A stretch of 64,000 nucleotides of DNA from Parcubacteria group bacterium (GTDB lineage: Bacteria > Patescibacteriota > Microgenomatia > UBA1400 > PJMF01), in the NCBI GenBank assembly GCA_943350175.1, contig CALQZX010000002.1:66061-130060 (forward strand), read 5' to 3'. Made by a program: the position numbers and the translations under genes. The notes beneath the pieces are model-generated. The model was given only the letters and a program-made list of their open reading frames with translations. It was not told the DNA's origin and searched no databases. Shown in pieces: positions 2,234-52,578 of this stretch; position 1 is the first letter of the stretch, and the number at the start of each line of letters is the position of its first letter.

Positions 2234-2652
2234 CGAGGCTTATTATAAGAAAGTCGAGGCGGAAAAGCCAGCAGAGTTAATATTAAGCCAAGGAGAGCGA
2301 TTGCTAAAATAGCTGCAAAGTTAAAATAAATGTGACTAATTTTGAAATAGAGAATTAGATTGATGATAAAGGCAAAAATAAAGCCAATTTTTTTGTTTAA
2401 AAAGAAAAAAGTAAATAGAAAAAAATTAGCGATAAAAAGTAGTGAGAATAAAGGTAAAAAGCTATTTTTAAATATAAAATTTTGAATTTGGTTTGGATAA
2501 ACTTTAGACAGCAACAAATAAAGTAAAAAATAACAAAAAATAGCTATAAATAGGCAAAAAATGTAATGCCAGTATTTTTTTAAGAAACTCAAATCGACAG
2601 TTTTTTTAATCTCTTTTAGTTTGCGCCTAGATCGGGCTTGGTTCTCTACCAT
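2230..2652 (-). CDS. hypothetical polytopic membrane protein
   Basis: 140 aa, very hydrophobic, 4-nt overlap with the metG start (translational coupling), AAAAGG Shine-Dalgarno upstream. Confidence 0.5.
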   Translation of the reverse strand: MVENQARSRRKLKEIKKTVDLSFLKKYWHYIFCLFIAIFCYFLLYLLLSKVYPNQIQNFIFKNSFLPLFSLLFIANFFLFTFFFLNKKIGFIFAFIINLILYFKISHIYFNFAAILAIALLGLILTLLAFPPRLSYNKPR

Positions 2653-2674
2653 CCTTTTAGTATACTAAAATCCT

Positions 2675-3811
2675 ATGACCAGTACGACCTTTATTTTATT
2701 TTTCCTTCTTATTGCCGCTTTGGTGGTTTTTTATCTTTCGATCAAAAAACTTTTGCAAGAAAAAAACTCTGATCAATCTAGCGAGCAGTTAGAAGACATG
2801 GTTCACAAAGTTTTTGGTATGGCTTCCAATGAAATTGCCATTCAAAGCAAAGGCATTTTGCAAGGTGAAAAGGACCTGATTAGAAATGATCTTTCCAACA
2901 AACAAGTGATGATTGAAAAAATGATTAAGGATTTGCGCCAGGAAATGGGTGAGCAACAAAAAGAAATTCGCTCGATTGAAAAGGATCAAATTGACAAAAT
3001 TAGTAAAGTTGGCGCTGCGGTGGAAGAACATCGCTTACTGACTAAAGAATTAAAGACTTCTACTGAGGCTTTGGCCAAAGTTTTGTCCAACAATCAAACT
3101 CGTGGAGCTTGGGGAGAGCGCATTATTGAAGATTTGCTACAAGCCAATGGCCTGCAAGAGGGCATTCATTATCTTCGCCAGGCCAAACTCGGTGAGTCAG
3201 TGATGAAGCCAGATATTACCTTGCTTTTGCCAGATCATCGCAATGTGCCGGTGGATGTGAAATTTCCTTATCAAGAGATCCAAAAAATGTCGATGACCGA
3301 GAATCAGGCTGAGAAGCAAACTCACATTGCTCAGTTTAAGAGGGATTTAAAAATCAAAGTGGATAAAGTTGCAGAATATATTTCTCCAGAAAATGACACT
3401 CTGGATTACGCCATTATGTTTGTGCCAAATGAAGCTTTGTTCTCATTCATCAATCAAAAGTTCCCAGATATTATCGATGAGGCTTTGGCGAAAAAAGTCA
3501 TTATCTGTTCGCCTTTTAGTTTCTTGATTGTGGCTCGCACTGTTATGGAAAGTTACCGTAATTTTATGGTGGGCAAAAAAATCAAAGAAGTCATCAAACA
3601 CATCGACGCTTTTGCCGGTGAATGGCTGAAATTTGACGAAGAATTTTTAAAATTTGGTCGCAGTATTGAAACCTTACAAAAGAACTATGAAACGCTCTCC
3701 ATTACTCGTAAGCGCCAGATGGAAAAGAAGATTGCCAAAATTGAACAATATCGCGGTAGCTCTGTGGAGTTATTGGAAGATGGGGAGAAGCCGAAGTTGT
3801 TAGAAGGGTAG
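2675..3811 (+). CDS. rmuC: DNA recombination protein RmuC
   Basis: 378 aa. N-terminal TM helix, long coiled-coil, C-terminal RmuC-type domain (MFVPNEALFSF...). Confidence 0.7.
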   Translation: MTSTTFILFFLLIAALVVFYLSIKKLLQEKNSDQSSEQLEDMVHKVFGMASNEIAIQSKGILQGEKDLIRNDLSNKQVMIEKMIKDLRQEMGEQQKEIRSIEKDQIDKISKVGAAVEEHRLLTKELKTSTEALAKVLSNNQTRGAWGERIIEDLLQANGLQEGIHYLRQAKLGESVMKPDITLLLPDHRNVPVDVKFPYQEIQKMSMTENQAEKQTHIAQFKRDLKIKVDKVAEYISPENDTLDYAIMFVPNEALFSFINQKFPDIIDEALAKKVIICSPFSFLIVARTVMESYRNFMVGKKIKEVIKHIDAFAGEWLKFDEEFLKFGRSIETLQKNYETLSITRKRQMEKKIAKIEQYRGSSVELLEDGEKPKLLEG

Positions 3812-3877
3812 GTTTTTGCTGAAATAGCTAAAAATAGCACTTCCTGTAATTTAGAGTTGAGATAATATCTGGGTGAT

Positions 3878-3944
3878 GGGCCAGGTGCCGGGCATGACTG
3901 GATCCACGAAATCTGGTTGGGGAGTTCAACTCTCCTCTGGTCCA
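3878..3944 (+). other. tRNA-like element: 7-bp acceptor stem (GGGCCAG/CTGGTCC), anticodon-arm-like hairpin with loop CCACGAA, canonical T-arm (GGGAG-TTCAACT-CTCCT); D-arm too short for a normal tRNA
   Basis: Folded by hand. T-loop TTCAACT fits the TTCRANY consensus. The anticodon-loop analogue resembles tRNA-Arg(ACG) but has C33. Only 14 nt are available for the D-arm region, so this is not a canonical tRNA. It sits in a 390-nt non-coding gap. Confidence 0.2.
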
Positions 3945-13020: not shown

Positions 13021-14586
13021 ATGGCTTGGTATCGTCTTTATCGTCCAAAAAAAGTTCAAGATTTAAATATTAGCTCTGTTAGAGAATCTCTGCAGCGCAT
13101 GATGGCTGATGGCAAAATTCCGCAGTCGCTCCTCTTTGCTGGTCCAAAAGGAACAGGCAAGACCTCAGCCTCCCGTATTTTGGGCGCCATGCTCAATGAT
13201 CCAGCTAATGCTGCTCTGGTTGATTATCTTTTTTTCAAAAAAACTGCTCCCAAGAAAATAGCTTTTGCAGAGCCAGATGAAACTAGCGATTTTGCCAGAA
13301 GAGTTTATGAAGGCCATTCCTTTGTAGTTCAAGAATTAGATGCCGCTTCCAATCGTCGTATTGATGACATTCGTTTGCTCAAAGAGAGGATTAATCTGCC
13401 TCCTTCTGAAGGTAAAATGATGGTTTATATCTTGGATGAGGTTCACATGCTGACCAATGAAGCTTTTAATGCTTTGTTGAAAATTCTTGAAGAACCACCA
13501 GCCCACGTTGTTTTTATCTTGGCCACCACAGAACTGCACAAATTGCCGGCTACTATCGTTTCTCGCTGTAGCGTAATTAATTTTAGAAAAGCTAATACTT
13601 TGGAACTTAAGCAGTCTTTGGAGCGAGTACTCTTGGCAGAAAAAATTAAATTTGCAGATGGCGATCTGGAAAAAATAGCGGCCAGAGCAGATGGTAGTTT
13701 CCGTGATGGAGTGAAGATTTTGGAAATGGCTTGCAAAGACGGCAAACTTGATTTGGAAGTAATTAAAGATCTTTTGGCTAGCGATAGCGAAGTTTACATT
13801 AAAAATTTGCTGGAATTTGTAATTAAAAAAGATGATCAAGCTCTAGTTAAGGTTTTTGAAGAGCTAAGAAACAATAATTACAATCAAAAAGATTTTTATA
13901 AAGATTTCTTCGAATTTTTACACAAAGATTTGTTAATCAATCTCTCAGTGATTGAAGGAGAGGCTGCTTATTCTCTCAAAATTGATCAATTTTTCCTCAA
14001 AGAAATTTTATCTGTAGATCTGAATCAAGAAACCCCAATTCCTTTCCTTGTTTTAGAATTGAAACTTTTGGAAATTATTGAGAGATCAAAAAAGCCTAAA
14101 GACCCTGCTCAGTCAAAAGAAGATGACTCAGATAGCAAAAAAAAAATTCAAAAAACTGAAGTAAAAATTGAATTAAAAACTGAGGAGGTTGGACCAGCAA
14201 AAAAAGTTGAAACTGTAGAGCCAGCTCAAGTAATAAAAAAAATGGAACCTGTTATTTTAGATTCTCAAATAGATACTAAAACTTTGTGGCAAAACTTAAT
14301 TAAGAATTTTGCTGCAGACAACTTTTCTCTTCTTACTCTCCTTAAATCTTGTAAATTAGATAGTTTAAGCGATGGCATTGCCAGAGTTTTTGTTTATTAT
14401 TCCTTTCATAAGGAGCAGCTAGAACAAAATAAAAATAGAGATTTGCTTGGCAAGGCAGCCATGGAGCTTTTAGGAATAAACTTGAGGTTTGATTTTGTTT
14501 TGCAAAGCGAACAAGTTCTTGCTGGAACGAATAACGAGACACAAGACTCAGAGCTAATGCTTGCAGCGAAAGATTCTTTGTTATAA
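13021..14586 (+). CDS. dnaX: DNA polymerase III subunit tau/gamma
   Basis: 521 aa. YRPKKVQD..., Walker A GPKGTGKTS, SRC motif (SRCSV), clamp-loader domains I-III followed by a K/E-rich linker. An A10 tract at 14137-14146 lies just after domain III. Confidence 0.9.
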   Translation: MAWYRLYRPKKVQDLNISSVRESLQRMMADGKIPQSLLFAGPKGTGKTSASRILGAMLNDPANAALVDYLFFKKTAPKKIAFAEPDETSDFARRVYEGHSFVVQELDAASNRRIDDIRLLKERINLPPSEGKMMVYILDEVHMLTNEAFNALLKILEEPPAHVVFILATTELHKLPATIVSRCSVINFRKANTLELKQSLERVLLAEKIKFADGDLEKIAARADGSFRDGVKILEMACKDGKLDLEVIKDLLASDSEVYIKNLLEFVIKKDDQALVKVFEELRNNNYNQKDFYKDFFEFLHKDLLINLSVIEGEAAYSLKIDQFFLKEILSVDLNQETPIPFLVLELKLLEIIERSKKPKDPAQSKEDDSDSKKKIQKTEVKIELKTEEVGPAKKVETVEPAQVIKKMEPVILDSQIDTKTLWQNLIKNFAADNFSLLTLLKSCKLDSLSDGIARVFVYYSFHKEQLEQNKNRDLLGKAAMELLGINLRFDFVLQSEQVLAGTNNETQDSELMLAAKDSLL

Positions 14587-14780
14587 TTGTCTAACCCTTA
14601 TATCTTTAACAGGCCACGTTCGACGGAAATTATTAGCTTTTTTAAGTTAACGATCTTCTTCTCACTCAAAGAAGTCGCTGTTAAGATATGTTATATTATG
14701 GTTCAGATCTCAGTCAGCTTCTTCTATGGGCTGCTAAAGATATAAGAGTTATTATTTATTAATAGAAAATAAAGAAAGGA

Positions 14781-14798
14781 GCGAATACTCGTATTCGC
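14781..14798. promoter_or_regulatory. perfect 18-bp palindrome GCGAATAC-TC-GTATTCGC between an AAGGAG box and the ybaB start
   Basis: Read directly. Dyad symmetry typical of a dimeric regulator site or a small hairpin. Confidence 0.3.
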
Positions 14799-14822
14799 GA
14801 CAAAAGTATGGCAGGAGGTTTC

Positions 14823-28990: not shown

Positions 28991-29085
28991 TGGCCTTCAT
29001 TAATAGTTTGCTTTTTTATTTTTTTTTGTTAATATTGAAATTGAGTACAAATTGATTTCAATACTAGTCTAATAAAGGAGAATTT

Positions 29086-52416: not shown

Positions 52417-52578
52417 ATTTTGTTATTTTATTTCTTGCTGTGGAATATAGTGAAAATCTATAACTGTGCCGCAACGGTGATTCCTTAGGGATTAGTCCGA
52501 TCTTCAGCAAAAGAGATATTCTTGACGAGCATCGAGTTAGAGTTATTTTGTAGACTTTAATTTTCTACCACAATCGAT

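Follow-up and report, generated by a model that had tools for sequence, protein, structure and literature searches.

The dnaX gene in a 64,000-nucleotide stretch of DNA from a Parcubacteria group bacterium (GenBank assembly GCA_943350175.1, contig CALQZX010000002.1, positions 66,061 to 130,060, referred to here as the window) carries a run of ten consecutive A residues that is probably a site of programmed recoding like the one in Thermus thermophilus, at which transcriptional slippage would give a gamma form of DnaX beside tau. The evidence that carries this reading is the conservation of the run in related dnaX genes and the scarcity of comparable runs in the other genes of the window. The parts of the gene, in window coordinates, are as follows.

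13021..14586, + strand: dnaX, encoding the full-length tau-like DnaX in the zero frame, 521 amino acids, 59.2 kDa (open reading frame list, profile and structure matches).
13021..14091, + strand: region coding for clamp-loader domains I-III, amino acids 1-357, common to both predicted products (AlphaFold2 model, alignment).
14092..14274, + strand: disordered, hypervariable linker, amino acids 358-418, which holds the slippery run (model confidence, alignment of 39 orthologues).
14137..14146, + strand: proposed slippage site, a homopolymer of ten A's made up of codons 373-375 (AAA AAA AAA) and the first base of ATT (sequence read).
14157..14159, + strand: TGA that closes the frame when one A is gained (or when the ribosome shifts by -1), predicted product ending ...KKKNSKN, 379 amino acids, 43.2 kDa (frame translation).
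14162..14164, + strand: TAA reached after one fewer A (or two extra), predicted product ending ...KKKFKKLK, 380 amino acids, 43.4 kDa (frame translation).
14275..14583, + strand: tau-specific folded C-terminal domain, amino acids 419-521, DnaX_C with a DnaA-N-like fold, missing from the short product (AlphaFold2 model, PF20964, profile).

The initial annotation of this DNA had described ten A's at 14137-14146 in dnaX, placed them after clamp-loader domains I-III at the linker, and read both alternative frames. The sequence read and a homopolymer count confirmed the run, and its placement also holds, since the run begins at residue 373, 16 residues beyond the end of domain III (residue 357) and within the disordered linker. 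Translation reproduced the two alternative endings, with KKKNSKN followed by TGA at 14157-14159 after an extra A and KKKFKKLK followed by TAA at 14162-14164 after the loss of one, 4 and 5 codons past the run, respectively. The sizes that had been proposed (about 380 amino acids and 43 kDa for the short product, about 59 kDa for the full one) agree with the predicted values of 379 or 380 amino acids (43.2 or 43.4 kDa) and 521 amino acids (59.2 kDa). Tau itself is a single uninterrupted open reading frame (ORF) of 521 amino acids, and TGA is a real stop in this genome, where it ends 13 of the 57 ORFs of the window.

The A10 run is the longest homopolymer in the window and the sole A or T run of at least 9 in the coding sense among the 57 ORFs. 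When synonymous codons were shuffled, 6.6 ± 1.8 coding A runs of at least 9 were expected compared to the one observed, which is that of dnaX, and 4.7 ± 1.7 coding T runs of at least 9 were expected compared to none observed; none of 300 shuffles gave counts as low as these. At a length of at least 8, 13 coding A runs were observed compared to 24.6 expected, and 4 coding T runs compared to 11.0 expected. In addition, AAA makes up 78% of the Lys codons in the window, and AAG breaks seven of the eight Lys runs of three or more in its ORFs, dnaX alone being all AAA. These results show that, across the 57 ORFs of the window, long A and T runs have been purged from the genes of this genome with dnaX as the sole exception, as is expected if its own polymerases slip on such runs (PMC1088944). 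The only other homopolymer of at least 9 in the window is a T9 at 29019-29027, which lies outside ORFs in an intergenic T-rich stretch (TTTTTTATTTTTTTTTG). A second A run, an A8 at 14235-14242 (codons ATA AAA AAA ATG), is present in the dnaX linker itself, 89 nt further downstream than the A10; the orthologue L161 has one like it, which is not general among orthologues.

For comparison, DNA was collected for 21 orthologous genes whose products share 39-93% amino-acid identity with the DnaX of the window, which makes 22 genes with the window and spans gene guanine-plus-cytosine (GC) contents of 31-53%. Three loci were uninformative and were left out, L009 because of a masked stretch of N over the linker and L081 and L082 because they end before the site. 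An A9 or A10 run was found at the equivalent position past domain III in 20 of the 22 genes (A10 in 15, A9 in five), always within residues 360-391. The linker around it cannot be aligned, and when 120 nt of DNA from 14 orthologues were compared, the A's were the sole invariant columns and the mean column identity was 43%. As a control, 48 distant dnaX genes with a GC content of 40% or less, among the matches listed, were inspected in the equivalent region, and only five of them had an A run of 9 or longer.

The codons that make up the run are as uniform as its position. All Lys codons at the site are AAA in each of the 20 run-bearing genes, even in L170 (GC 53%), which otherwise uses AAA 12 times and AAG 15 times, and in L169 (AAA 24 compared to AAG 16). 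The tenth A is supplied by ATT or ATC (Ile), by ATG (Met, in L002), by AGC (Ser, in L172) or by a preceding CCA (Pro, in L170), and its retention next to four different neighbouring codons indicates that the constraint is on nucleotides rather than on amino acids. In the proteins, every homologue with at least 55% identity (P0001-P0038) has KKK but never KKKK in the linker region of amino acids 341-440 (P0034 has two), as do about half of the homologues at 43-50% identity. Taken together, the comparison indicates that purifying selection acts on the run at the nucleotide level. Two orthologues carry more than one run in this region: L168 (P0032; 31% GC) has three separate A9 runs, at dnaX amino acids 356, 367 and 377, within 22 linker codons and no single A10, and L007 has two.

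The frames entered by a gain or a loss of one A also tend to close quickly. With an added A, a stop lies 1-8 codons past the run in every run-bearing orthologue but L170, and with an A removed a stop lies 0-7 codons past it in 16 of 20, the exceptions being L168 (11), L006 (16), L010 (19) and L170 (46). In three of the GC-richer genes the sequence is AAAAAAAAAATTGA, and the stop is immediate. The orthologue stops are modestly closer than a within-gene null (Wilcoxon p = 0.011 and 0.027, with orthologues that are not independent). The check that had been proposed at the outset, conservation of the A tract together with near out-of-frame stops in orthologues, thus came out positive.

The gene is dnaX by several lines of evidence. 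Its product scored 271.8 bits with TIGR02397 (dnaX_nterm; cut-off 250), aligned to NF004046 over residues 2-500, and matched PF13177 at 1e-29 as well as AAA and lid domains, and the match to E. coli gamma/tau structures had an E value of about 3e-39. Its neighbours are the usual ones, ybeY upstream and ybaB downstream, in the window and at the orthologue loci. The closest dnaX relatives among the matches listed are in metagenome-assembled genomes (MAGs) labelled Pacebacteria, Paceibacterota, Microgenomates or Patescibacteria, which places the window in the Patescibacteria. Six MAGs (L001, L003, L005, L006, L008 and L009, with dnaX 45-72% identical) are titled 'uncultured Pseudomonadales bacterium' in their TPA records, an apparent mislabelling of taxonomy.

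An AlphaFold2 model of DnaX built on 39 orthologues (mean predicted local distance difference test score, pLDDT, 80) divides the protein in the same way as the alignment does. Domains I-III are confident (pLDDT about 80-94) with a final helix at residues 343-357, and conservation in the alignment reaches ...LEIIERSKK at the end of domain III. Residues 360-415 are disordered in the model (pLDDT about 30), and across the 39 orthologues the linker differs in length and sequence, the KKK motif excepted. A compact alpha/beta domain follows at residues 419-497 (pLDDT 85-90). PF20964 (DnaX_C) matched 13 of the 39 orthologues, with a best E value of 9e-6, and a profile of the tau C-terminal region matched DnaA domain I (4tps_B, 5e-5); a Pfam scan of the C-terminal 149 amino acids of the window DnaX alone gave no DnaX_C match. 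DnaX_C is related in fold to DnaA domain I. The assignment of this domain as DnaX_C is based on the PF20964 matches of the orthologues, the full-length NCBIfam alignment, the fold prediction and the profile match to DnaA domain I. According to the model, truncation at the run would keep the whole clamp-loader module and would remove only the linker and the tau domain.

Under the reading that we favour, RNA polymerase moving over the ten A's, which are ten T's in the template, would realign the nascent RNA on it and give rise to mRNAs that differ in their number of A's (A10, A11, A9 and others). Transcripts with the templated number of A's, or with three more or three fewer, would be translated into the full-length tau of 521 amino acids, which would bear the C-terminal DnaX_C. 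In characterised tau proteins, this domain tethers the polymerase. Transcripts with one A too many or too few would run into a stop 4-5 codons on, and their product of about 43 kDa, made up of domains I-III and about 20 linker residues, would be a gamma. We infer from the sequence the occurrence of slippage, its transcriptional level, its efficiency and the use of the short product by the clamp loader.

The same short product could be made at the ribosome, by a -1 frameshift on A_AAA_AAA or by sliding on the poly(A)/poly-Lys stretch without the stimulators known from E. coli, which we consider unlikely, although part of the evidence fits it. An A_AAA_AAA heptamer is in zero-frame phase in the window (third base of codon 373 through codon 375), and every orthologue run contains one in phase, whether the run itself is in phase 0, 1 or 2. 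The -1 frame is also the one whose stop is more consistently near (1-8 codons in 19 of 20 orthologues), and E. coli dnaX uses the related A_AAA_AAG (PMC5009743). What a ribosomal route lacks here is the Shine-Dalgarno (SD)-like element and the stem-loop that raise frameshifting in E. coli to about 50%, both of which are absent and unconserved. No SD-like motif (GGAG, GAGG or AGGA) was found in the 22 nt searched upstream of the A10 in the window, and such a motif lies within 22 nt upstream of just 2 of the 23 runs that the 20 orthologues contain. Downstream, window positions 14147-14236 fold with a minimum free energy (MFE) of -12.4 kcal/mol (z = -0.63), which is background level and agrees with the absence of a stem-loop in the initial annotation; in the orthologues, the 60 nt past the run had a mean z of -0.1 and thus no conserved structure. 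A single orthologue, L002 (43% GC), has a perfect hairpin directly after its A10 at 3639-3676 (stem of about 13 bp, MFE -19.7 kcal/mol, z = -2.5), and no other orthologue has a comparable one. A GGAGG that had been placed about 20 nt downstream of the run is in fact 38 nt past it (14184-14188); it is not conserved, lies on the wrong side to stimulate -1 frameshifting and was rejected as irrelevant.

The length and composition of the run also bear on where slippage would take place. A ribosomal shift needs 7 A's, yet the run always has 9-10, about the length of the RNA-DNA hybrid, and it never takes the form A_AAA_AAG, which in E. coli reportedly shifts far more readily than A_AAA_AAA does (PMC5009743). 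Moreover, the +1 frame tends to stop early as well as the -1 frame, which matters only if the RNA gains or loses A's. Because of these properties, and because stimulators of the E. coli type are absent, transcriptional slippage is favoured over a ribosomal event. The preference for transcriptional slippage that the initial annotation had expressed is supported by the missing stimulators and by runs of at least 9 A's compared to the 7 needed at the ribosome.

That there is no recoding at all seems to us quite improbable, and it could take two forms. In one, which we regard as very improbable, conservation concerns a Lys-Lys-Lys peptide motif of the tau linker, such as a contact or a protease site, and a preference for AAA has produced the A run as a side effect. 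The peptide SKKKI(Q) is indeed conserved among close relatives, and the Lys codons of the window are mostly AAA, as stated above. A precedent for a protease site would be Caulobacter, where gamma arises from tau by proteolysis (PMC5009743; bioRxiv 10.1101/2022.11.10.516041). A peptide motif does not account for the codons, however, since the 60 Lys codons found there are AAA without exception, also in genes with an AAA usage of 44-60%, AAG interrupts every other KKK in the window, and long A runs are otherwise strongly avoided. Nor does it account for a tenth A kept across four different neighbouring amino acids, or for the runs of L007 and L168, which are out of phase and encode KK plus flanking residues rather than KKK.

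In the other form, which we find scarcely credible, chance has produced the homopolymer in a linker rich in AT and Lys, or the tract is hypermutable (phase-variable) at the DNA level and has no programmed role. With 31.5% A and bases treated as independent, roughly 0.4 A10 runs are expected in 64 kb, which does not make a single A10 improbable by base composition, and the off-frame stops in the window are at chance distance. Chance fares poorly against the comparison of 20 of 22 orthologues with 5 of 48 AT-rich distant genes (the distant set being among the matches listed). As for a phase-variable tract, the roughly 60 closest database homologues are all full-length and in frame, without truncated alleles, and on/off switching is implausible for an essential gene, dnaX being an essential replication gene. 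Gamma-length truncated homologues, which could represent A11 or A9 contigs, were absent from the top 120 protein-database matches, in a database that derives almost wholly from DNA assemblies; one 57-amino-acid member of the same database cluster, P0121, proved to be unrelated.

Several observations weigh against programmed transcriptional slippage and temper our preference for it. L003 and L171, both members of the clade, have no A run at the site, and in L170 the off-frame stops are distant, 15 and 46 codons past the run, which suggests that the feature is dispensable or replaceable in some lineages. The naive joint probability of an all-AAA site, 10^-7.3, overstates the significance because the orthologues are phylogenetically related. 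The near out-of-frame stops noted in the initial annotation are present in the window, but no nearer than expected by chance: measured from random dnaX codons, a stop lies at a median distance of 5 codons for the -1 frame and 9 codons for the +1 frame, with the observed stops at percentiles 0.47 and 0.35 of this null. Distances of 4-5 codons thus match the null in an AT-rich gene, and the close stops were rejected as evidence within the window. Polymerases of some AT-rich bacteria may resist slippage on A9 (Baranov et al., PMC1088944), although the avoidance of long runs in the window argues otherwise for this genome. Finally, the in-phase A_AAA_AAA makes a ribosomal share inseparable by sequence alone from transcriptional slippage.

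The distribution of DnaX forms in other Patescibacteria, for example Gottesmanbacteria and Wolfebacteria, is also informative. Eight loci in such lineages (L021, L053, L054, L075, L095, L121, L125 and L139) encode a natural short DnaX of about 350-370 amino acids that ends right after domain III, which means that a protein of gamma design is viable in the group. A tblastn search downstream of these loci detected no tau C-terminal domain, and there is no poly-A at their ends. From their sequences, these lineages look like gamma-only clamp loaders, and they raise the question of how the polymerase is tethered there. One further locus, L110, may be a two-ORF dnaX: a 384-amino-acid ORF at 2495-3655 is followed by a weak tau C-terminal match (E = 0.078) at 3701-3907 in a different frame, and the junction has no long A run.

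The reason for which bacteria produce tau as well as gamma from dnaX is a long-standing question. The importance of gamma is argued mainly from the different routes, namely ribosomal frameshifting, transcriptional slippage and proteolysis, by which unrelated lineages arrive at it. An A9/A10 site conserved at the nucleotide level in a genome-reduced clade would carry the slippage route into another phylum, and it suggests selection for a tau-less DnaX even in minimal replisomes. A literature search found no earlier report of dnaX recoding in Patescibacteria or the candidate phyla radiation, and our sequence comparison thus appears to extend a known mechanism class to a phylum for which none was found. 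A further-reaching proposal, which we put forward only tentatively and think unlikely to be correct, is that gamma production by poly-A was retained, or arose independently, in a genome-reduced clade of Patescibacteria with sister lineages that encode nothing but a gamma-length DnaX without the tau C-terminal domain. Given efficient slippage, the clade would represent a natural stage between replisomes with tau plus gamma and those with gamma only, and would then offer a handle on what gamma is needed for. In a more unusual variant, the short product would come from stimulator-free sliding of the ribosome on the AAA tract and not from slippage of RNA polymerase.

There is also a consequence for annotation, since gene callers give only the 521-amino-acid product and the predicted second product is invisible in all database entries of the clade. 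For those who work on recoding and on replisomes, the use of the site lies in the phylogenetic extension, in a clean nucleotide-level signature and in the contrast with short-DnaX neighbours; the mechanism is a textbook one. Two other features of the window were noted. The 220-nt spacer between dnaX and ybaB (14587-14807) is unusually long for a compact genome (92% coding) and has no Rfam match, and an Rfam scan gave no match in or near dnaX. Elsewhere in the window, at 52424-52514 on the + strand, there is an AdoCbl-II (cobalamin) riboswitch aptamer that scores 46 bits, above the Rfam gathering threshold.

Among known systems, E. coli dnaX shares with the gene described here an in-phase A-rich heptamer and the outcome, a gamma without the tau C-terminal domains. 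The E. coli cassette, however, consists of A_AAA_AAG with an upstream SD and a downstream stem-loop, whereas here there is no A-site AAG, no SD and no stable or conserved hairpin, and the tract exceeds the length that a frameshift heptamer requires. Caulobacter crescentus likewise has two DnaX forms from one ORF, but its gamma is made post-translationally by ClpXP proteolysis of tau with no slippery motif, whereas the feature here is conserved at the nucleotide level.

The closest likeness is to T. thermophilus dnaX, in which, as later papers summarise it, transcriptional slippage takes place on an A9 with near stops in both other frames (Larsen et al. 2000, via PMC1088944 and PMC5009743). The two genes have in common a tau encoded in a single zero-frame ORF, a sense-strand A run of at least 9 past the clamp-loader domains, near stops in both other frames, the absence of stimulators of the E. 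coli type and, by prediction here, a mix of tau and truncated gamma. They differ in the run, A9 there and A10 here, and in the host, a GC-rich thermophile compared to an AT-rich uncultured Patescibacteria lineage (36% GC in the window). Slippage was shown experimentally in Thermus, whereas here we infer it from conservation alone. Also comparable are the 17 two-ORF dnaX genes from 12 genera, nine of them with A10, described by Antonov et al. 2013 (PMC3711429), which involve the same gene, the same A10 motif and a predicted programmed transcriptional realignment. Those genes are the mirror image of the present one: their zero frame ends just past the run, so that slippage makes tau, whereas here slippage would make gamma.

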